A model generated the notes under the pieces. That model made no database searches and had not been told where the DNA came from. It worked only from the letters and a program-made list of their open reading frames with translations. The translations under genes were made by a program, and so were the position numbers. This document shows, piece by piece, positions 28,536 through 56,383 of a stretch of DNA of 64,000 bases. Origin of the DNA: Haliotis cracherodii (lineage: Eukaryota); contig NW_027266270.1 of the NCBI RefSeq assembly GCF_022045235.1, positions 4,278,001 through 4,342,000 of the forward strand, in the 5' to 3' direction. Each line of letters starts with the position of its first letter. Position 1 is the first letter of the stretch.

Positions 28536-29109
28536 ATGGTTGTTATTATATAGATATGTGTTATCAGATACCAGTGTAGTTGTAATAATATTCATGTGTG
28601 TTGTCAAATACTAGTATTGTTGTTATCATATACATATCTGTTATCAGATACTAGTATTGTTGTTATTATATACATATTTGTTATCAGATACTAGTATAAT
28701 TGTTATTATATACATATTTGTTATCAGGTGCCAGTATGGTTGTTATTATATCCATATGTGTTATCAGATACCAGTATGGTTGTTATTATATCCATATGTG
28801 TTATCAGATACCAGTATGGTTGTTATTATATCCATATGTGTTATCAGATACCATTATGGTTGTTATTACATCCATATGTGTTATCAGATACCAGTATGGT
28901 TGTTATTAGATACATATGTGTTATCAGATACCAGTATGGTTTTTATTATATACATATGTGTTATCAGATATCAGTATGGTTGTTTTTATATACATATGTG
29001 TTATCAGATATCAGTATGGTTGTTTTTATATACATATATTTTATCAGATACTAATATGGTTGTTATTATATGGATATATGTTATCAGGTACTAGTATGGT
29101 TGATATTAT
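28536..29109. repeat. 40-bp minisatellite, ~14 units
   Basis: Unit TTATCAGATACCAGTATGGTTGTTATTATATCCATATGTG. It abuts the Tc1 terminus at 29113. Confidence 0.95.
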
Positions 29110-35177: not shown

Positions 35178-35777
35178 TTGTGTTGGTAAATCGAGGGCAT
35201 GTATGCCCTAGTGATCATTGTGTTGGTATATCGAGGGCATATATGCCCTAGTGATCATTGTGTTGGTATATCGAGGGCATATATGCCCTAGTGATCATTG
35301 TGTTGGTATATCGAGGGCATGTATGCCCTAGTGATCATTGTGTTGGTATATCGAGAGCATGTATGCCCTAGTGATCATTGTGTTGGTATATCGAGGGCAT
35401 GTATGCCCCAGTGATCATTGTGTTGGTATATCGAGGGCATGTATGCCCTAGTGATCATTGTGTTGGTAAATCGAGGGCATGTATGCCCTAGTGATCATTG
35501 TGTTGGTATATCGAGGGCATGTATGCCCCAGTGATCATTGTGTTGGTGTACCGAGGGCATGTATGCCCTAGTGATCATTGTGTTGGTAAATCGAGGGCAT
35601 GTATGCCCTAGTGATCATTGTGTTGGTATATCGAGGGCATGTATGCCCTAGTGATCATTGTGTTGGTATTTCGAGGGCATGTATGCCCTAGTGATCATTG
35701 TGTTGGTTTATCGAGGGCATGTATGCCCCAGTGATCATTGTGTTGGTGTATCGAGGGCATGTATGCCCAAGTGATCA
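35178..35777. repeat. 40-bp palindromic minisatellite, 15 near-identical units
   Basis: Unit TGTGTTGGTATATCGAGGGCATGTATGCCCTAGTGATCAT, containing AGGGCAT-RT-ATGCCCT and TGATCA palindromes. Confidence 0.97.
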
Positions 35778-38151: not shown

Positions 38152-38714
38152 CAATCAATCTTACCCTTATACACCCTCTATTACTATTACCACAGCAAAA
38201 TTCCAATTGTATTCTTTAAACGCCAGTAATGGGTGCTGACTGTTCCCTGGAATCCACAAGGGGTTCATACTGCAAGATGCACCTGTGCTTGGCGGAAGCC
38301 AATCCTCAAGTCACATTTATCCAGGGAAAAGTGGCAAATTCAATCAGTTTAAACCGGGGGAATTTGAAGAGAAAGAGGCTGTTTGGAAACGGAGAGGGTT
38401 AAAAGACAATACTTGAACGTTTCATGTACCTGGTAATGCTCACACTGTCTAAATGAGACAGGCAGGTTTCTGCCATGAAGACGCTGGCTCTGTCTTCCTC
38501 ATCTCATATAAATGCTACAGACTGTATATCTTGAAATTAACGCGAGCGTGAATTAAAAGCGAAAGAATTGAGTGGTATTTGCTCGCATTAATTAAACTTC
38601 GCTTTTATGGGTTAAGGTAAGGTTGGATTAAGGTAAGGATATGTATCATTCCACTGGGGAAGGGAATGCGTGGAGTCGCAGTAATATTCATATATATCAA
38701 ATGCTGACAGAGTG

Positions 38715-40929: not shown

Positions 40930-41060
40930 TGCGAGCACATTTGCATATTGATAGAGTGTGTGGGAGGTCCAAAAGTATTGTTTAAACTTTGCCCACATCC
41001 ACTCATGGGTCACGTGACTTGTGGGATAAAAGACGCACCGTACATAGTTTCTTCCATTGA
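40930..41060 (+). promoter_or_regulatory. Candidate Pol II promoter of the FMRFamide precursor gene
   Basis: Octamer ATTTGCAT 40939-40946, palindromic E-box GTCACGTGAC 41009-41018, TATA variant GATAAAAG 41025-41032, and Inr-like CCATTG with its A at 41056, 31 nt downstream of the TATA-like box. Confidence 0.55.
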
Positions 41061-41144
41061 CTAACCCACAGTTCCGAGCGCACAGGGTATAGGGGCCGTA
41101 CGGACACACGCTAGACCACTACACACCAAGGATATTGAAAACAG
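41056..41144 (+). other. Candidate non-coding first exon (5' UTR) of the FMRFamide precursor gene
   Basis: ATG-free 89 nt ending in a perfect donor CAG|GTAAGT (41144/41145). The next recognisable exon on this strand starts at an acceptor and contains the ATG, so an upstream non-coding exon is required. Linking the two is inference. Confidence 0.55.
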
Positions 41145-43882
41145 GTAAGTCAACTATTTTATTCTGCAAGAAAAGTGAGGATGTCTACCACAAGACAAGG
41201 AGAAATTTATATTTGTTTCAATATGTGACATTTTATTATGTGAAGTTCATGAATAGGTATTTATGAATATTTGACGTGTAGCCAATAGCAACTAGTTATG
41301 TATGTAAATGCACATGTACTTGTTACGATGTGGACAAGACATAGCGCGAGCTTAACGATATATCAGTTGCAGATGAAGTATCAAATTTAATAATTGAACT
41401 ATTCAACACAGATTTATTTATGCAGCTGTAGAAATGGTTTAAAAGTTAATTAATGAAGACAAAAAGAATTTCAACCCAAATGTATAATAAAGTGTATTGG
41501 TTAAAAACTTTTTTCTTTAGTTCATATATATTGCCATTTTTCGAAACCAATTTCGACCCTGTTTAAAATTACAAGTATTACCATATTCGAACCATCCCCA
41601 TCGACATGACCAACAGACTCGTGTATGCATAGTTAGCGACTGTAAGTTTAATCCGTATAGCAGGTGTACGTCATGTAATGAAGGCGGGTATCAATTTCAC
41701 AGCGACACACGTCATGAATCAAACCTCGCTATCAATCCACAACCATTGATTCCTTCAGAACATGTGTAATTTAGCATCATGTGATAATTACACTGTGAAG
41801 ATAAGACTGACGACTTGCAGGCTGTTCTTCTTAACATTTTAACCAGATTCCAGCAACTAGATAATAGCGTCACGCGAAATGTCCTCAACAGTTTGAATCT
41901 TCCCGTGAGAGGTGAGACGGCAATGGCTTTCTGACGCCTGCGAGTTCTATATCAAGCACTCGGTAGACACAAGGGTATAGTTGAATTAGTTTGAAGAGCG
42001 ATGAAGAAAAGCGGCGAGAACGAGCTGGATGTCTTAAAAAGTGTCATTGACACACACCGTATATTCAGTCACTTGTCTGGTTGGAAGACGTTTGAAATCT
42101 GCAATTTTTTAAATGAATATTCGAACAATGCTCCATTTAAAGATAAGACAGTTAGCATTCTGAAGGGCTTTGCCGGAATATAAAATTTAATCTTGGTTTT
42201 TTAACTAAAAATATTTTATGGTCTGTGCTAACAAGGTACTGAACTTGGTTTTTGATATTTTGGGCATGCATTTCAAATTATATAGAAAAATATGTAATGT
42301 TTGCAATAAGACTACTCTAGATTACATCATAAGTTGAAATGTAAGAAAGCTCTAACTTATCCACTGAAATCGCGTCCCATCGCGTATGTCGAAACTATGA
42401 ACGGTGAAAACGTCAAATAACGGAGGTAATTGTCGTATCATTGGTGATTTCTTTGAGACAAGGCAGTAAAGGTACATGTAGAGAACTTGAGTATGCTATC
42501 AAATATATCTAACAGTCATGATGTATTGCCAAGGCTTTACAGACGTATCAATGAGGTTATGCGAAGTGGTGTATATTGTAAATAGAAATCTCTGCTAAAA
42601 GTCGAGTGTACGATTCCGACTATGTCATGTCTTTATGAATCACTATCGAATGGTGTTAGTACCAGATGTTCACGAAACAGTAAGCCGAACCTGCCCCACT
42701 GGTGGTACCCGTAACAAATACATGCAAAGGCAAGTCAAATGTTCATCTAAAAACAACGTGAACATATGGTACAAGTCAAAAAAGGGAATTGCATCAGTCC
42801 AATTTTGGTCACTGATGCGTCAGACTGCGAAATGTAAATCAGTCCGTTCTTATAAATTCAATCCCTTGCATATATCGGACTATGTTTTGTTCCGGGACAC
42901 GGTGAACCCTGTCATCTATGTATCGCAACTCGCTTTGCAGTGTCGCGCCACTTAGGCGTGCTTGAAACCATTAATCGAGGGTTCGAATTATGTGTCTAGA
43001 TTTGTCATGGCCATGTTCATATGTTTCACCAAAGTGGTAAATCTCTAGGACCTGCATCACTTCGGGCTTTCCTCACACACTGAGCTGACACGCCGTCACA
43101 TAACTGGAATACAGTTAAAAGCGGCATTAACCTCACTCACTCACACACTGATGTATCTACCACAATCTCATACTTTTACGCGCTCTCGCAGGCTCGACAG
43201 AAGACCAGTTTCATTTTCAGCTTAATCCAGAAGGTGAATAGGTAAAGATTACCGAACCTATCGCTGGTATAGAATACCAATTCAAAACCAAATTTGTAAT
43301 GAAAACATTGTCTTATAACTACGAACCCATTACAATCCCATTTTGACAGTATTTGTACAGAATTCTGTTTTGATATTTAAGGCCAAGAACAAATTAAGTG
43401 GGAACGTTAGGTAACGTTACTGACTCAATACATAGATATACATGAATGGAAAATGTCCCCATTCGTCGGAGATAAACTGTTTCGAATGGAGAGTAGACGA
43501 TATTGGTATCTAGAGGTTATGGAAGAAAGTGAAGCGTCGTCTGATTGTCAACACACCATTCTGACTCTCATTCATTTTAAAGAATACAAATAGTTATGGT
43601 TTCTATTGTTTCTATATTCTATGGTTTCTCGAGATCACGAAATTTACACTGTTGACAACCAGGACGCTTAATCGTATTCATTTACAAGCTGTATTGTACT
43701 GATATTTTCCGACTAACAAATACTGATATATAAACACACTTTTCATGACCTTTAGTCACCACTGTAGAAGAAATATTCAAAATAGTCTTTTAATTAACAA
43801 AGAACACTTCTTTTCGATATACAGCATGTTAGAATGTATATGTAACATAAAGATTATGTAATCTATAAAATACCTATTTATA

Positions 43883-44160
43883 AGGGGGTACGGGTGGCCC
43901 AGTCGTCTAAGGCGCCGCGATTCGCTGTACAGAGTTGCGTCCCTTGGGCACGCCAGAAACCTATGATTGTGGGTTCGAATCCCGGTTCGCCCCGATTATG
44001 TTTCTAGGTTTTTCAGCACCATACCCGTGCTCGTGGGTTTCACCGAAGTAGTAAACGTCTGAGACCTGCATCACTTCGGGCTTTCCTCCCACATTAAGCT
44101 GACACGCCACGATATGACTGGAATACTGTTAAAAGCGGCGTAAACCAAACTCACTCACTC
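43883..44160 (+). mobile_element. SINE family B, full length, tRNA-Leu-like head (other copies ~33560-33640, 33770-33850, 45520-45770, 47570-47670, 48235-48300 on -; 43030-43145, 54190-54420, 56625-56800 on +)
   Basis: A box TGGCCCAGTCG followed by TCTAAGGCGCC, B box GGTTCGAATCC, central TTCGGGCTTTCCTCCCACA, tail GGAATACTGTTAAAAGCGGCGTAAAC(ACTC)n. Imperfect TSD ACCTATTT..TAAGG on both sides. Confidence 0.92.
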
Positions 44161-44189
44161 ACCTATTTTTTAAGGACATTCACATAATA

Positions 44190-44340
44190 CCCTTTTCGTG
44201 AACATCTGGTGCTATCGCTGATGCTTAGTGATCCTTTCATGTGATTACCACCGCTAGTGTACCGTTTACCCCAACTGGAATCTGTTTCGGGGGATAATCG
44301 AGAATGGTCATTCTCTGGCGTTGACGTTTTATATTTACAA
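44190..44340 (+). repeat. Unclassified dispersed repeat family E (other copies ~800-906, 6880-7058, 16950-17128, 22208-22387, 52563-52593 on +; 44795-44950, 47328-47500 on -)
   Basis: Conserved end TGGAATCTGTTTC..GATAATCGAGA.TGGT.ATTCTCTGGCGTTGACGTTTTATATT in the longer copies. The 52563 copy keeps only the last ~30 nt and the 44795 copy lacks them. Confidence 0.8.
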
Positions 44341-47254
44341 CTTAAGTCAGTGAGTTATTTACAAGGACTCCGACTACTTTTACGAGTACAGTAGATGGAC
44401 TACTCTATTTGAGCATCTGGCTTGTCTAGCAGAGTTCCAGTAAATGCATCTCTTCCTTCTGTAACCAGATGAGCAGTACCACCGTCCTCATCCTCTCAAC
44501 TCACGTCGCTATTACTGTCACGTTAATTACCGCAATAAGATTATAAACCGTCTTGCGCCCAATACTCTGTCAAACATACTACCAGCGACACGACTGGTAC
44601 CACCTCCACAAGAACAGGGTAGTGTGGCGAGTATCTTAAGCCAACGGTGTCTTTCCACAGAGCGATCAGAACAACGACCCACTTTCAGTTTAGTTTCGAC
44701 TGTTTGTAATTATTCGTTATGATGACAGAGACAAGATTATGAGCCATATAATGCATTGACTAATGGTCGCGTTCTCCAAATATAAAGTCAGTGTCGATTA
44801 TCCCCCGAAACAGATTCCATTGGGCGTAAAATGAGAATTAACGGTGAAAAATATATGGATGGATCACTGAAAATCAGTGATGACACCAGGTGTTCGAAAG
44901 AGGGTAAGCATGTCTTGCCCTAACGGTAGCACCCGCCACTAACACAATTTGCATGAGAATATGTGTTTGTTTCTTTACACCGCACAGCGGTAGACCGCAA
45001 AGACGTCTTAGTGTTAACTGGCGCCAGTTGCGACAACGTCTTTCCATCTGTATTGAAGCAAACGGACACTTTCCACAAAATAAAAGATTTTCATAAACCT
45101 GTTATAGGGTTGGAAACCAGTCAAGGAAACTGTCTGAAACCGACATATGGCATGATCATATAACAAAGCACTAGGGAGCCGTTAATAAAATCTAGAACGG
45201 TTGATGTAACCCTTGATAAGTCTTATATTGAAGAACACATAAAATTTTGTTCTGAATAAATCATGTTACCTTTTTTGAAAACGGACAAATCCCAATTGCT
45301 TCAGAAGTTGTACGTGGATAATTTTAATAATTTAGACGACTACTTGAATTTTGCACGTAATGAAAGTCACGTATTTGGATATAAGGGACTAGTTAAGTAA
45401 ACGTAGTCCAAATTTATATTTGTTATTATAAGGAACAATAATGGTCACTAAATATCTCAATGCTTTGAATATATTTAATAATAATCATAAATAAAAATAT
45501 AATAAATATGACACAACCAGTGAGTAAGTGAATGAGTGAGTTGGCTTAACGACGCTTTGAATTGTACTTCATTTATATCATGGCGAGTCAGATTGATGTG
45601 GGAGGAAAGTCAGAAGTCAACAGGACTTAGACGTTTACCACTTTTATTAAGCCCGTGAGCATGGGTATGGTGCGGACGAAACTAGAAACATAATCAGGTC
45701 GAAACTTGGATTCGAACCCCCAATCATGTGTCTCTGACACGCACAAAATACGTAACTCTGAACAAAGAGACACAATCGGGAATGTACACTCACGAATATG
45801 TCCGTTTTTATTGATCACCTCAGTTTTTGAGACCCTATTGAGTAACTCTATCTCTTCACTGACGTAAATACCCCTCTCACAGTGCTTAGCTCAAATGTGG
45901 AAAGAGACCAGATGAAGAAGTATGACATTACCGATTCCACAGTGGAGGCATTTTCTACAGGTTCCTAAGGGTCTTCTTCAGATACATTGATTCTTTGATA
46001 ATTGAAGTAAATACGACTGATGACACTACTCCCCAAAAGACTATTCAATGTCAAACTGTAATTGGTGGAAACTAAAGGCTAAAAATCTAACCCAACACAA
46101 CTAATGACATTCACAAAAGTGTGTCAAATGTATGAACAGAAAAACAAGGCAGCTTGTCTCTAAGTCAAAACTCAACAATGTTGCTATTTTGTCCTGTCGC
46201 TGGAGGCGAATCTCTCTCGAACACAATCTGGCAGCGTAGGTAGACACAGAGGTCAGACTGTGTAATGCAATGCCTAATAGCATCGGTGTAGTAGCATTAG
46301 TGTATTAGCAGTGTTTACCAAACTTACCTCTAATCTTCACCATTCTACCTTCGGCATCGGCATCACTGTCACTTCCCTGCCAAGTTTTTACCAACCTAAT
46401 AGAGTTTTGGTAAGGTTGGAATCAGATTAAGGGTCCGTTAGAGGAATATGTCCTTATTTCTAGAAAACATCAGCATCTCTGGAGCCCCCCTAAGGCTATT
46501 GCATGGTGGAGATTGATTTAATGAACAAAACCCATAATGTTTTAAAATCTAACATCAGAAACTGTGCCAACCCAGTAGCCTGTCCATTTTGGTAGATTCT
46601 TCATCCGAGTTTGGTAAGAAAATTCAAAATAACTTGGTTATGTTCCGCGGAGGTATTTTCTTACACGGTTATTTGTCAAATAATAAAATGTACCAAGCCT
46701 GTGATTTCCCGTGTGGTGGAAAAGAGTTATGTCACGCGCTTTGACTGACTCGTTCAACAAAGGCCCAGTGGTATTTAAAGAACAGCAATGGTTTACTTTG
46801 GATCATTTCAAGGGTGTGGGTGTCAAGTATCAGTAACATCTGTCTCTCCTTACATGTCAATGCTTTAGCTGTCTTCACAGTTTGATACAAAAATAGGAAC
46901 ATGTTTTATCAGTAACGTGCACATGATCATGGCGAATTGGTATCCAATGCGTATAAGAACAACATATGGAAAAGTGCTTCCTTAACACTTGCCTGCAATC
47001 CTTCTCTCTGAAGGCTTCGGGTTAAAATCTCACTTACATCTAACGACTCACTAGAATATACGATGTTTTGGAGATTTAATGTTATTAAATGAATGAAAAA
47101 CAAAAGTTTACAACTTTACAGCGGGGTAACTTAAACCTTAGAACTACAATGGATGAAGGCATCTGCTGCTTTACTGGTCTAGTGGGTAGAGCGTCAGAAC
47201 GGAGAGCGGAAGGTCTGTTGTCGGCTCGGAGTCTACGCAGATACATTCTCTCTC

Positions 47255-47255
47255 A

Positions 47256-47295
<40 letters not shown>

Positions 47296-47520
47296 CACAC
47301 ACACGAAATCACGCACGAATGCGACGTTAGATATAAAACGTCAACGCCAGAGAATAAGCAGCCTCAATCATTCGAAGAAACAGATTCCATCGAGCGTAAG
47401 AGGAGAAATAGCAGTGAAGCGCTAAAAATCAGTGGTGAAACCGAGTGTTTCCGAAAAGGGTAAGCGTGCCCTGGTCTACGGGTACACTCCAATTAACACA
47501 CACACACACACACGCACGCA

Positions 47521-47551
<31 letters not shown>
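47255..47551. repeat. Two (GCAC)n/(CA)n microsatellites flanking a family E copy
   Basis: 47255-47305 and 47497-47551, read directly. Confidence 0.9.
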
Positions 47552-50500
47552 TGTGTGTCAGCATGTTGTGGAAGGAAAGCCAGGAGTGAGGCAGATAGGT
47601 TTTCAGCAGTAAGCTGAAACCCACGAGCTCGGGTATGATGCCAAACAAAAAACACATGACAGGGGCGATTCTATGAAGGCTTGGTCAGAGATAACAACCC
47701 ATGATATATATACGGAACCTCAGAGATAACCGTTACATTATGCATGACCGAGACAACACAAACCACAGATATCACAGCGCAAAGCTTGTCGTTATATTCA
47801 ACCCGGCCCGCCCCTCGTCCATTTGACATTAACAGGAAGAAGGGTTTTGCTAATAACATGTGCTATTGAGATACGAATTGGAATGTCTTCAATAATTACG
47901 TTACAATCTGGCTTCTATCGATCAAGCCACAAAAGAAGTGAATCTTCCCGCTTCTGTATATGAATGTGCGGCATGTTGAAAACTGGAAATGGAATATTGA
48001 AATGTCCGCGGTTAGTCCCTGATCAACTTTCGGCAAACCTCGCTGGTATTATATCAAGTTGAAAGTATGGGGTTTAAAAAAAGTTAGACTTCTGTTTGAA
48101 TTTTGTTTGTTTATGGAAGTTCCGTATTCCGATATTAAGGACAATACAAACTCCTGTGTCATATCAATGCCGTTAAGTTATTTATGTCCGTCCGCAAAGA
48201 AACGCAATCCAAACATGATGAAAGCAAAATAGAGAGTGAATCAGTTTGGTTTAACGCCGCTTTGGACGATGCTTAAGTTATTTCACGGCTTCGTGTGGGA
48301 AAAAACCCCAAATGCAATACTTAACGTTTACCAATTTGAGGAGCCGACAAGGAATCGTTATGTGGTTGAATATAGCCTCCAATAAACGGTTGAGGAATGT
48401 CCAAAGTGAAGATCTCAGATGTTTAACGTTTGGATGACAAACCAAAAATCATGAAGACGAACCTGGCCGCCAAGAAATAATTTACATTATTTCACAAATC
48501 TACTACTTTGACAAACATGTGATTGAATCTCGAAATATCTAAAAGAAGACATCGTTCAGGACCACTACCATAAGTAATAAACCCCCAGAACGTGCCCCGC
48601 CATGAATAACGGTGCGCTATCCCGCTATTCCGCCGTCACTTCTCACAGACTGATGCATGAAACAAGCAGAAGCATTACTCCCCTGACCCGAGACCCCCGG
48701 GGTATTGTATCTCATCGCTATTTCACTCCTTACGTGCCTAATAGATTACTCTTTATGGGGATACGGACATCGCAGCCCCATGGGCTCTATCACTGCGTTT
48801 CGTGAACGTCCCCCGTACCAATCAACTATCTGTATGTATTTTAACTGCAACAAACGAGTCCCTTCTGACTTGGCATGGGTCAGAGTTAGCCGCTGTAAAC
48901 AAATAAAGTACAAAATCTTTTCCTTGCTTGTTGAGAACACTGGAAGTCTTTGCTTTTGGGGGCCTTTGAAGATGTTGGTGCTTAATGCTCTACAGCAATA
49001 TAATTACAACAGTTTGTGCATTTATGATCTTGAAAACATCGAATGAAACTGCAAAGATTTTGAGGGTGTCAAAGATCATAAACGATGTATTGTCGCAGTG
49101 AAATCCTTGTAGAGTATATAACCATAGTATGTCCTGGAATAATTGTAAATTATAAAAGCAACAACACCATTTCAATGATCATATAGAAATCTCAATTGTA
49201 TGATTTCAACTACATCGTAAGAATGTGTTTACTGTGTGAATGTGAATCACTATCGCATAATAATGATGGCAAGCCAAGCGTTAAACATTGGACAGATTGC
49301 TGAAGAAAGCTATAGATTGGACATGAGTGGTCATTGATAATAGTCAATTCCTTTCGGAGATAATGAACCATTCCTTCAGTTGCAATAACTAGATAAATGT
49401 TGAGATTGCAAATAGATATGTAAAATGTTATGGACTCATTGAGATAAGATGAAAACCTATTCTGGGCAAACATATTGGGAATAATTCGCGTAACCTTAGG
49501 AAACAGGCAATAATGCAACAACAATGAATTGTAGTAATTTTCAATTTGTAGTCGTAATAAATGATTTATTCATTTCTTCAGAAAATACAATAATACTTAC
49601 TATTTCATTGTATCCTAATGAAATATCCATGTTTACCTTTGGAATATTTCTTTTTCAAAATTTGGTATTCAAAACGATCCCTTAAATTATATAAAACAGA
49701 ATTATACTTTTCGAAATATAGTTCTAATTCATGTTTAATCCGTGTTATTCAATATGGAAAAAAACCCATATCAATATATGAATATAACACAATGGACTTA
49801 GCCAACAAATAGGACCTAATACAACCGACCACGGTTACGGGTTAGATTGCGATCAACTTCGTCTGTACATAACCTAAAACACTAATCGATATCGTTATTT
49901 CTTCGTGAAAGATATTTTCCGTGGTATTGTGTCCCTATACCAATACGTCACGTTTCTTGACACCGATAATGCTAAGACAATGACTGGGCGCTGACCAGAG
50001 TGCTGATGGTGGGGTTAAAAGCAATACATTATACAACAAACATTTTAAGCATATCAGATGGGACACTTTCACTGTGTTGTGAACACACGAGCACACGTTC
50101 TACATTAAGATTAGTTTATTAGCACTCAGTCTAAAACGACTTATATTTTTGACGAAAACGTTAGGAGAATTTGTTTAGAATTGAATTAAACAAAAACGTG
50201 TGATTAGCTCATCATTAATAGACGGTTTTTGTTTTAAAGAGTTTCCGAAAAGGTCTCGCGTTAGGATTACGGCAAAGGAAAAACAATCGAAACAATCTAA
50301 ATCAACACGGTTTCAATTTCCTAGATTTTCTTTTAAAGAACGTAAGCCCTGTTGCAATCTCTGCCTGGTATAGAACGTAAGCCGCATTGCAATACGTTTC
50401 ATGGCATTTGTTTCTATCCTTCCATTCCGTTGAATAAAAAAACAATTAACAATTTTAAGAACTTTCTAATTTGCCTTTTTGCAGTAATTGAAAGCCTTCG

Positions 50501-50628
50501 AAACAACAGACACAATATCAAGACATATTGCGTATTTGTGAATTCCGTGTACATTTAATATGTCATGTTATCTGTGACAAAACGTCAAAGAATATTTCTA
50601 ATTGTTAATTGAGGAAAATGAATTAAGT

Positions 50629-50631
<3 letters not shown>

Positions 50632-50710
<79 letters not shown>
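50632..50710. repeat. (TA)n microsatellite, ~39 units
   Basis: Read directly. Confidence 0.98.
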
Positions 50711-50714
<4 letters not shown>

Positions 50715-51708
50715 CTTCTTAGCAATGATAGGAGGCGAGTAAATAAGACTGGACGCCAACCGACGAATATTGATAAGCGAATGGCGATTTTTAGTAACTC
50801 AGTTCTTGTCTCGATGCAGTAGTTATTAAAATTACCGTGAACGTGAAAAGGAAATTTAGAAATAACGAGCTGATTTTAACTGTCCTCATGCGCTGGTTAG
50901 AATAATGCCCCAGTGTTTACTTCGCGGAGAAACAAAGACGACCTGTCTTACAACTGCTCCTAACCACGAGGCCGGATGATTAACGACATAAACAGCCTGC
51001 CACTGTCTCCAGATATCCTACAAATTGGCCTAAGATGTTCATCCTTGAGTACATAATGAATGTTGGTATGGAATTGTTTACACCAACCATTGATCGCAGG
51101 AAGATAATCTAAACGAACCCTATACATCAGGAGAGTTAATTAAGACGAATTTTTATAATATTCGCGCCGGTGTCACTTGATAGGCATGGGTAATATAGGG
51201 TAGGTATTATTTTCGTATATACCTCTGAGATTGGATTCATAGTGGGGAGACTTGAATTTCAAATTAGGGTTCATTTGTTTTCTTTGTAAATATAATTACC
51301 GTTGAAACCTTGTTAGGAAAGTTTCTTTCAGCAAGAGGTTTCCACGTCGAGTATTAATTATTGATTGGTTAAATGAAACTTTATTTCTTCAGCTAGTGCA
51401 CACAACGAGATAGAAGTACATAGCATGAGAATTATCTTTTTAAATGGTAAACGTGCTGCACCAGAATAGATTTTGTTAGCGTTTTATTCAATATGGACAA
51501 AACAATACCAAAATATTTAACACAATGGACAGTGACAACAAATACAACCCTAAACAACCGAACGTGGTTTAGGGTTAGATCACAAACAGCCGCGTCTCTT
51601 AATATCCTTCAAAATAATCGATATCGCTATTTTTGTGTGAAAGATAATTGTTCATGTCGAGTTAAATATTTTGGGTGTGGAGGTGTGCGGAGGGGGCTGT
51701 GATTTTTG

Positions 51709-51872
51709 TTGCAAACAAGATATTTCAAACCATGAATGATTTCTGTGAAAACCAAAAATTCAAAACATTTCTAAGACATCCGACACGTCTTAAAAATGTT
51801 TGGAAATTTGTTTTGTTTTCACAGAAATCATTCATGGTTTGAAGCAGTGACCGAAAAATATCTTGTTTGCAA
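51709..51872. repeat. Long inverted repeat (hairpin), probably internal to a MITE
   Basis: TTGCAAACAAGATATTT / AAATATCTTGTTTGCAA, TTCAAACCATGAATGATTTCTGTGAAAAC / GTTTTCACAGAAATCATTCATGGTTTGAA and AAACATTT.TAAGAC / GTCTTA.AAATGTTT. Confidence 0.9.
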
Positions 51873-52255
51873 TCTTTGTTTTGTAAAACCTGAGGTCGAT
51901 CTTTCCAATTTTAGTCTGGAAAAAATTATCTGTTTAAAACAAACGTCCTTGCCCACTCCCAGTACATGAAATGGTCGGTCTCCTAGAAATATGAAACCAT
52001 TACCCTGATCTGACCTTGTGTGCGTGTAGAAATAGACTTGGTGAGCGATGCTCTGTGTGAACGTTATGTGTGTGAAGGCCTATCTCCGAGACTGTGGTTA
52101 GCTCCTCTGCTTATATCACGGCGTTCTGTACATGTTGGAGTATGGACTTAACAAACCAGTGACTGACAGCATGAGCAATCTCACATGATGACACACAATC
52201 AACCAAGTTGCTGAATCCGAAAATCCGATTGCATTTAATCGACTCTTGCAGGAAG

Positions 52256-52405
52256 GGGAGGTGAGGTAGCCTAGTGGTTAATGCGTTCTCTCGTCACGCT
52301 GAAGGTCAGGGTTCGATTGGGTTCAATGTGTGAAACCCATTTCTGGTGTCCCCCGCCGTGAATTTGCCGGAATATTGCTAAAAGCGGCGTAAAACAATAC
52401 TCACA
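52256..52405 (+). mobile_element. SINE family A, full length (inserted next to a degraded family C copy at ~52100-52250)
   Basis: GGTAGCCTAGTGGTTAA.GCGTTC.CTCGTCACGC.GAAG..GGGTTCGATT..AATGTGTGAA.CCCATTTCTGGTGTCCCCCGCCGTGA..GGAATATTGCTAAAAGCGGCGTAAAAC. Confidence 0.92.
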
Positions 52406-52594
52406 GGCAAATAGAGTGCTGGAGACCTATCATCACCCGGGTCTCCACGGGGCCTTATTCTGATGCTTCTCAATATATGACTTGCTACATACGGACGGGT
52501 TGACTGTTTTTTGACGGATTGGCTCGTGTGTTAAATAAGGTTTCACAATACTGATGCTTGTGTGTTCTCTGGCATTGACGTCTTATATTGACAA

Positions 52595-52996
52595 AAGGCT
52601 CGACTGCATTGATGCTTGTTCTTGTTGGCCGATATTTGACAGACTTACTCTTGTGTTACAGAAGGCTCGACTGCATTCATGCTTGTCCTTGTTTGCCGTT
52701 ATTTGACAGACTGACTCTTGTGTTACAGAAGGCTTGACTGCATTGATACTTGTCCTTGTTGGCCGATATTTGACAGACTTACTCTTGTGTTACAGAAGGC
52801 TTGGCTGCATTGATACTTGTCCGTGTTGGCCGATATTTGACAGACTTACTCTTGTGTTACAGAAGGCTCGACTGCATTCATGCTCGTCCGTGTTGGCCGA
52901 TATTTGACAGACTTACCCTTGTGTTACAGAAGGCTCGACTGCATTGATACTTGTCCGTGTTGGCCATTATTTGACAGATTTACTCTTGTGTTACAG
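52595..52996 (+). repeat. 67-bp minisatellite x6, each unit ending in a 3' splice site
   Basis: Unit AAGGCTCGACTGCATTGATRCTTGTCCKTGTTGGCCGATATTTGACAGACTTACTCTTGTGTTACAG. The AGs end at 52661, 52728, 52795, 52862, 52929 and 52996. Confidence 0.95.
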
Positions 52997-53035
52997 AAGG
53001 GTCCCCTGTTCCGTGGTCTAGCAGAAGGCCAAGTT

Positions 53036-53159
53036 ATGCGGCCCTGGACATCTGTAGCCCTGCTGGCAGTCGTGCTCATCAAGTGGATCAGCTGCATCAA
53101 CGGCTTCAGCGACTTCTGCAACAAACCCGTCAACTCCAGAATCTGTGCAATCCTGAGCG
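53036..53159 (+). CDS. FMRFa: FMRFamide neuropeptide precursor, first coding (signal peptide) exon; exon probably 52997-53159, followed by a phase-1 intron
   Basis: MRPWTSVALLAVVLIKWISCINGFSDFCNKPVNSRICAILS(G): a signal peptide followed by a two-Cys spacer, with strong GC3 bias, acceptor TTACAG| and donor G|GTAAGA. From memory it closely resembles gastropod FMRFamide precursor N-termini (Aplysia MRPWCQLALLACLSLKWLT.., Lymnaea MKTWSHVALLACLSIKWLT..). No FMRF/FLRF-encoding exon was seen in the window. Confidence 0.85.
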
Positions 53160-53783
53160 GTAAGATGCCAACTTCTCACATTCAAAAGAAGCCTGACAAT
53201 CGGAACATAATTTTGTATTTTCTCAAAAGTATTCATTCCGAAAACGTGTCTGTGTTTACTAATTGATATGACGATTAAATCGCATGGAGCAAATGATAAC
53301 GTCATAAAACTGAGAACCAGAAAGGTCGCTGCGTCGATATTTGACAATATCGAAAAGGAACAGGGATAAACTAGTGGATGTATGTTAAATGAAATCCATT
53401 AGTATGTATTCAACTCTCCTATGACATACATTACTGATTTCGTTGGGTTAAAAAGTACACGCTAAAAGATTCTTCCAGTATATTAGTTCAGATGTTAATA
53501 TTGGGAAAGCGATATTGTCGTGGGTCCAAATGAAAAGAAATGTGGAAATTGCAAAACAATTTCGATAATGACCTGTTTTAGGATGGGGGAGTTCATAAAT
53601 AAAATGAACGAATATCCCACCCTTTGCATGTCAAGTCAAAGAGTTACTCCAGTTCATATATTAAGCGAAGAGAAAACGTCATAAAAGAATGCCCAAAAGA
53701 ATAAGAATGGTATTTGATGTCATTTAATGATTTTTGTGTCATGTGGGCATTGTTAACTTACAATTTGTTGGCTTCCGCACCGG

Positions 53784-55063: not shown

Positions 55064-55472
55064 CTGAAACGTCATTATTTCTGAAACGTCAGTGTCGTTT
55101 GAACGTTTTTATCACTGAAACGTTATTGTCGTTGAAACGTCATTATTACTGAAACGTTATAGTCGTTGAAACGTTATCATTACTGAAACGTTATTGGCGT
55201 TCAACGTTATTATTACTGAAACGTTATTGTCGTTGAAACGTCATTACTACTGAAACGTTATTGACGTTGAAACGTTATTATTACTGAAACGTTATTGGCG
55301 TTCAACGTTATTATTACTGAAACGTTATTGTCGTTGAAACGTTATTGTTACTAAAACGTTATTGTCGTTGAAACGTCATTATTGCTAAAACGTTATTGCC
55401 GTTGAAACGTTATTATTACTGAAACCTTATTGTCGTTGAAACGTCATTATTACTGAAACGTTATTGTCGTTG
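55064..55472. repeat. 33-bp higher-order minisatellite of alternating 16/17-bp subunits, ~12 units
   Basis: Alternating TGAAACGTTATTGTCGT and TGAAACGT(C/T)ATTATTAC. Confidence 0.92.
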
Positions 55473-56383
55473 AGAGACTGAGCTTCACGACACTATCCGT
55501 ATACAGAACCGAACTTAGCTCTTAACCGAAAGAGCGAAAGCTTTAGCTACAAGGCCACACCACCGCACCATTGTTTCAGATGGAGCCATTTACACACTCA
55601 AACCAACCACTCACTCCAAATTATCTCTGTCAGGTAATGTCAAAACACATAGATTGTACCGTGCCTATTACCTCTTAATAAGGTCAGTTTTACATTTTTA
55701 TCGACATGAATTCCTTTATCTCTTATAAAATCACAAGCGGTGTCCGGTCCATGGAATCATTGCCTGCACGTTAATGTATCGTTGCATTTTGCATAATGAG
55801 AGGCGGTTATCCTGAGGCCCAAGCGTCATTGTTCCATCATCGCGTGTAAATGCATTTGAACTGCCAGCTCTAATTTGTAGGTTTTGTTTCAGACGTGTTA
55901 AGATGATATTTGTGGACGAAGAAAGCGTGAAATGACATATGTTATTATTTCATCACAACAGAGTCTGTTTGATGGCGTTCTCATTCAGAACCAATGTGCT
56001 TCAGTATTGAAGTGTTTCCAGTGGAACTGTGTTTTAAGGCCGTTGGGTTCATGCTGAGATCTCTTTGAACCAGCTATCTTCAGTTCTATACTCCAACATA
56101 ATTTGGATCAATGTGGTTCGTCATCAATTTCTTATATATTCACTTATGCTTTCGTAAGTGACCCAAGAAAATGCCTGACTTTCTATCGCTAAACTAATTT
56201 TACCACGATGATAACAGGTTGATTTTCATTTCATATTTTCAAATATTAAGTTAAACTACATAGACAATATTATCTCAGCATTAAAGCCACTCCATTGTCA
56301 TCAACTGGCAATATATGACATCTTCTAATATATTCTACTCAACTTTGATAAGAATATTTCTATGATTCCACGACATACCAATA

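Follow-up and report, generated by a model that had tools for sequence, protein, structure and literature searches.

A probably silent six-copy minisatellite spans the 3′ splice site of the signal-peptide exon in a putative abalone FMRFamide precursor gene

Tandem repeats that multiply a splice site have been described for amphioxus and human genes, and the following account is limited to the parts of the respective reports drawn on here. The closest described systems are the so-called mirages of amphioxus, minisatellite-like duplications of intron/exon boundaries with units of 10–160 bp that leave splicing undisturbed and for which haplotypes with 6 versus 3 units occur (PMC3087553). The mirages of amphioxus Adh, troponin C and PGBD5 likewise did not disturb splicing (PMC3902484). 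In human CBS, the insertion 844ins68 (c.844_845ins68) duplicates 68 bp across an intron/exon junction; splicing strongly prefers the distal copy, and the resulting mRNA is normal (PMC2630376, where the relevant text speaks of a “donor”). On the donor side, a 37-bp VNTR in intron 7 of human F7 multiplies the splice site, the first copy being the authentic one while the pseudo-donors stay silent (PMC1557585). The 25-bp VNTR in intron 18 of human ABCA7, which is long, highly variable and also located on the donor side, provides the precedent for a minor use of neighbouring copies, as a minor isoform includes one repeat unit, and for effects of repeat length on splicing (PMC5954066).

Compared with these systems, as far as the cited parts describe them, the abalone array resembles the amphioxus mirages (Adh3, troponin C, the globins BflGb6 and BflGb9, PGBD5) most closely: the 3′ end of an intron and the 5′ start of an exon are repeated in tandem, the 67-bp unit and its identity fall within the ranges found there (10–160 bp and 81–100%), the splice signals are kept, the number of six units equals that of one BflGb6 haplotype and a normal mRNA is formed from the authentic copy. 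Unlike those mirages, it occurs in a mollusc and not in a cephalochordate, its exonic part comprises only 4–12 nt of 5′ UTR and it is flanked by decayed copies. With CBS it shares the junction duplication in which the distal copy is favoured, although there two copies, arising by a polymorphic insertion, concern a coding exon, whereas six copies precede a 5′ UTR exon here. The study to which PMC2630376 refers for CBS reportedly carries 3′ splice-site selection in its title. With F7 it has in common that a minisatellite multiplies a splice site whose extra copies are normally silent, and with ABCA7 that the repeat contains a splice site; an effect on splicing has been shown for ABCA7 and none in abalone.

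The window, i.e. the whole 64-kb stretch of Haliotis cracherodii DNA which was analyzed, contains the features outlined in Table 1. Tandem Repeats Finder unveiled a period of 67 at 52591–53000 with 92% matches, no indels and a score of 673, and all six occurrences of TTACAGAAG in the 64-kb window lie inside this array, to which the unit is thus confined within that stretch. In agreement with the alignment of the units, the preliminary description of six near-identical 3′ splice sites within a minisatellite was thereby reproduced. The head-to-tail units cross the intron/exon boundary of the host at 52996/52997, and every one of the six fresh units ends in TTACAG followed by AAG. Pairwise, the units differ at 2–8 of 67 places (at two places for units 3 and 4), and the mean distances of 4.8, 6.4, 4.4, 5.2, 6.0 and 6.0 for units 1 to 6 set neither end unit apart from the rest. 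The 12 bases upstream of the AG are invariant in all six units, which leans towards acceptors that have been kept but is not significant (chance 0.057; 0.18 for an 18-base invariant run anywhere in the unit). On a simple tract score all six acceptors are equal, with pyrimidines at 8 of the 10 positions from −14 to −5. The start of the unit matches the start of the exon at 9 of 12 bases, the 8 bases beyond AAGG having a chance of 0.03 for a length picked post hoc. Nearly all copies of the unit are open in two of their three reading frames. The GTs within the array agree with the donor consensus at no more than 5 of 9 places.

Upstream of the array, local alignment identified decayed older copies with a score of 63, compared with a maximum of 38 among 1000 shuffles and of 31 among 324 other tiles of the window. 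Both decayed copies lack the CAG, whereas AG and tract are intact in all six fresh units. A 17-base dispersed-repeat motif occurs seven times in the window (885, 7030, 17099, 22358, 44311, 47354 on the minus strand, and 52565), and one of these copies sits inside the decayed unit directly upstream of the array. Minisatellites are common in the window, since arrays with a period of at least 10 occupy 3.6% of it; further examples are located at 28536–29109, 35178–35777 and 55064–55473 (40 bp × 14.4, 40 bp × 15 and 34/101 bp, respectively), the first of which exhibits an acceptor-like TTATCAG motif in most units.

Table 1 Features at and around the repeated acceptor (positions of the window).
Feature	Position	Strand	Basis and remarks
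Non-coding exon 1, without ATG	41051..41144	+	3′ end shown; 5′ end approximate (41031–41051)
Intron 1, 11,852 nt, GT-AG	41145..52996	+	Junction in RNA-like contigs
Decayed older unit copies, ~1.6	52482..52590	+	Local alignment; CAG lost in both
Minisatellite, 6.1 × 67 bp	52591..53000	+	Unit = intron 3′ end + first 4 (perhaps 12) exon bases
Five upstream acceptor copies	52660..52929	+	AG ends 52661, 52728, 52795, 52862, 52929; no use seen
Potential 11-codon uORF	52679..52714	+	Exonic only with the first acceptor; weak start context (T at −3)
Potential 52-codon in-frame extension	52880..53035	+	Intronic up to 52996 in observed mRNA
Used acceptor (sixth copy, AG end 52996): candidate branch-point A 52974 (−23), T-rich tract, TTACAG	52974..52996	+	Junction from RNA-like contigs; branch point predicted
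Exon 2, 163 nt: 39 nt of 5′ UTR, ATG 53036, signal-peptide coding	52997..53159	+	X4/X12 contigs; FMRF2 match

The 42 codons starting at 53036 showed 100% identity to FMRF2 of Haliotis discus hannai (one hit among four candidates), and tblastn placed residues 1–41 of this precursor (QXP00688; P0001) at 53036–53158, again at 100%. This match supports the earlier assignment of the exon to the signal peptide of a putative FMRFamide precursor gene. The matching database protein contains F(M/L)RF-G repeats between basic sites; no FMRF- or FLRF-coding exon was found within the 64-kb window, and the exon 2 donor reads GTAAGA at 53160.

In order to determine which acceptor is used, sequencing runs were searched with the array locus, yielding 24 runs, among them 17 guessed to be RNA and 6 unlabelled runs that contain the locus; none of the runs with the locus is recorded as RNA. 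Assembled contigs of two of the 17 (X4 and X12) and two of the six (X18 and X22) were aligned to 52905–53700, a stretch that starts in the last part of unit 5 and extends through unit 6 and exon 2 to 540 nt into intron 2. X4 and X12 carry two organism labels and belong to two studies, X12 being shallow. Each of them contributed one contig covering 52993–53161 with no difference from the window and with loose ends on both sides, at a depth of 94.9 for X4 and 4.1 for X12. The upstream loose end of 30 letters is identical in both runs and has a single exact match in the window at 41111–41140 (0 in 100 shuffles), which is followed by ACAG/GTAAGT. As ACAG terminates both exon 1 (41141–41144) and intron 1 (52993–52996), the alignment is ambiguous by 4 nt, and the GT-AG rule resolves this ambiguity in favour of a 41144/52997 junction. 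Because their contigs join 41144 to 52997, X4 and X12 represent spliced RNA, exon 2 is internal and its acceptor is genuine. The acceptor in use is the last copy, 52996, in the dominant form of both runs. The CAGAAG pointed out earlier as a NAGNAG is indeed present, and splicing took place at its first AG in the observed contigs.

Contig cover of the repeat at 52905–52985 was zero in both RNA-like runs, with the proviso that contigs lose rare variants and show presence rather than absence, so that a minor upstream use is compatible with this result. A transcript starting its exon 2 at an upstream copy would traverse unit 6 and would have shown cover there, and the unbroken contig across the junction suggests that no competing branch survived assembly. 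All junctions at 52996/52997 is the outcome that the preliminary description itself had named as speaking against its proposal of six competing sites that tune the 5′ UTR, translation or secretion, and as far as contigs can reveal it, the 41144-to-52997 junction was the only one in two of two RNA-like runs. For comparison, all 17 RNA-guess runs shared 0.15 of the words of 52400–53400 (expected: 0.14 for exon 2 alone, 0.21 with an extra unit), a figure not taken as evidence, 15 of the 17 runs being known by it alone.

The cited part of a study on Hdh-FMRF2 reports a 5′ UTR of 133 nt determined by 5′-RACE (PMC9856054). The UTR portion of exon 2 from acceptor 6 leaves 94 nt for exon 1 (start at 41051), acceptor 5 would leave 27 nt, and acceptors 1–4 alone exceed 133 nt. 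The loose part of the X4 contig, 110 nt, would reach 41031 if it were colinear beyond the 30 letters shown. The sum 94 + 39 = 133 is set-up arithmetic on lengths only, its weight lying in the exclusion of acceptors 1–4 and in the closeness to the X4 length; in this sense the 133-nt 5′ UTR fits the last acceptor. As exon 1 contains no ATG, the observed mRNA is free of upstream ATGs. An alternative exon 1 at 38507–38632, proposed from a TATA box and donor spacing, was rejected, as the RNA-like contigs put the 3′ end of exon 1 at 41144. The sequence just upstream of the RACE-implied start contains GATAAAAG (41025) and, near 41046, an initiator-like TAGTT, and the motifs at 41025–41050 may represent a weak promoter candidate.

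Abalone FMRFamide transcripts are described, in the section cited, as having the signal-peptide exon in common and differing in their downstream parts (PMC4208409). The X4 and X12 contigs run past exon 2 into an exon which is unlike FMRF2 and reads GGPPQNEDKRF, the loose end stopping at KRF, and thus also differ from the FMRF2 precursor, with which they share the exon 2 product. The signal-peptide exon is accordingly common to alternatively spliced transcripts. Presumably, the exon following exon 2 in these contigs is that of the FMRF1 form. It is absent from the window, and because it must lie outside, intron 2 is longer than 10.8 kb. Three further proteins, P0002, P0003 and P0004, comprising the FMRF2-like RefSeq models for H. 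cracherodii and H. rufescens as well as a Logan protein, begin with other N-termini and are devoid of the signal-peptide exon; errors in the gene models, caused by the great length of intron 2, are the probable reason.

With a probability of roughly 0.8, we consider the array to be a silent mirage minisatellite, close to neutral, of which only the last copy is spliced. A stretch comprising the last ~55–63 bases of intron 1 and a few bases at the start of exon 2 would have been duplicated in tandem, and ordinary minisatellite turnover would have expanded and homogenised the copies, giving six fresh and two decayed ones. In the two RNA-like runs, the last copy was the only one to which the spliceosome had joined exon 1. 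As the six acceptors are equal on the simple score, position and not sequence must decide. Splice sites can be chosen by the principle of exon definition, which would be the likely reason here: the donor at 53160 lies 163 nt beyond the last AG, the only one to precede true exon sequence. Each upstream copy leads into further repeat and has no donor, which would keep it silent. The mRNA and the precursor would then equal those of a repeat-free gene. In the remainder of intron 1, 15 YAG sites possess an equal or better tract. Messenger RNAs from acceptors 2–5 would contain neither a premature stop nor a uORF. Nonsense-mediated decay was therefore rejected as the cause of their absence, which reflects a choice at the splicing step. 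Micro-exons within the array were likewise rejected, the units containing no adequate donor. Against neutrality stand the invariance upstream of the AG and the persistence of the array, at much the same apparent number of copies, in relatives with introns that differ by 4–8% (see below), neither of which is strong.

The branch-point consensus is yUNAy. The preliminary description had ascribed a branch-point-like ACTTAC or ACTGAC to each unit, which does not hold for unit 6, the one in use, where ATTTAC is found. Moreover, the A of this motif is located at −15, closer to the splice site than the 19–37 nt quoted as typical in the part of the source cited (PMC10078293). A TTGAC motif, invariant in all six units, carries its A at −23, and because this distance falls within the typical range, it would be the better branch-point candidate.

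A leaky variant, in which a few percent of transcripts would be spliced at 52929 beside the dominant last acceptor and would gain an ATG-free 67 nt of 5′ UTR with no change to the protein, appears unlikely to us, although the copies are equal in their local sequence and a minor branch of 67 nt could vanish during contig assembly. No such contig was present in X4, despite its depth, or in X12, nor did any repeat contig in these two RNA-like runs indicate a use of units as alternative splice sites of the ABCA7 type.

For comparison with other abalones, the DNA-like runs X18 and X22 (organisms E and F), whose contigs cover all of 52905–53700, were considered. In the intron, their contigs depart from the window sequence at 35 of 447 and at 31 of 746 bases, respectively, and on account of these differences both are diverged relatives. 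Among the 18 pieces listed out of 32, each run has contigs crossing from unit 5 into unit 6 as well as several unit contigs with variants; the deepest of them reach 4.9–6.3 times (X18) and 6.4 times (X22) the depth of the single-copy flank, a rough hint at about 5–6 copies. In X18, a contig connects one of the units with the flank upstream of the array. Because X18 and X22 contain unit junctions, the array predates the split of these lineages. The direct comparison with the other runs covers the end of unit 5 and unit 6, and no contig spans the whole array. In organisms A and C, the sources of X4 and X12, the array is probably present as well, since their exon is identical to that of the window and the array occurs both in the window and in the more diverged E and F. 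According to the cited part of a further report, this abalone has intronic minisatellites of polymorphic length (PMC6905558). At 53254–53266, two X18 contigs with facing loose ends, one of which carries a GTGA-type repeat, overlap by 13 bases; this probably marks a mobile-element insertion with target-site duplication that organism E carries in its intron 2 and that neither the window nor X22 has.

Still less probable than a leaky last acceptor is a regulated or allele-dependent use of upstream acceptors which, by an N-terminal extension or a uORF, would tune translation or secretion. The underlying arithmetic of the preliminary description proved correct: recalculation gave exon sizes of 163–498 nt depending on the acceptor, an ATG at 52880 that is in frame, stop-free and adds 52 residues if the acceptor lies at or before 52862, and an 11-codon uORF from ATG 52679 with the first acceptor. 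These reading frames, the junction bases invariant among the units and the retention of the array in diverged relatives speak for such a use. Against it, none was seen in two of two RNA-like runs, the RACE length excludes acceptors 1–4 unless the clone was truncated, and the extension is absent from all four proteins of the FMRF2 cluster, a weak test. Furthermore, both upstream ATGs have a T at −3, and the ATG at the unit position of 52880 occurs in three of six units, its being in frame a one-in-three chance. Considering the weak start context, these three units and the two open frames of the repeat, the 52-codon extension would need no special explanation, the open frame being a property of the repeat. 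It is similarly improbable that some six copies have been kept across abalones because certain neurons or stages use upstream copies. If upstream use were real, a leader of 52 residues or a uORF, encoded by the repeat, would hide the signal peptide or depress translation, and the unit number would constitute a heritable dial on FMRFamide output, i.e. a mirage with a function. Finally, a single acceptor duplicated in the assembly, which the preliminary description had also named as fatal to its proposal, is practically negligible: although no compared record spans the whole array, the units differ among themselves, X18 and X22 contigs cross unit-to-unit junctions and include variant unit contigs at 4.9–6.4 times the flank, and the upstream flank is joined to a unit in X18.

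In the literature on FMRFamide and minisatellites no published account of the abalone array was found, most subscription journals lying outside this search. The array is a mollusc addition to the known mirage repeats, and the abalone FMRFamide gene now has a position for its non-coding exon 1. A length-dependent use of upstream copies would tie a minisatellite to neuropeptide output; the evidence points against this. With six locally equal acceptors of which one is used, the locus offers a natural test of 3′ splice-site choice, in an FMRFamide gene that is easily assayed in the ganglia of a farmed animal.
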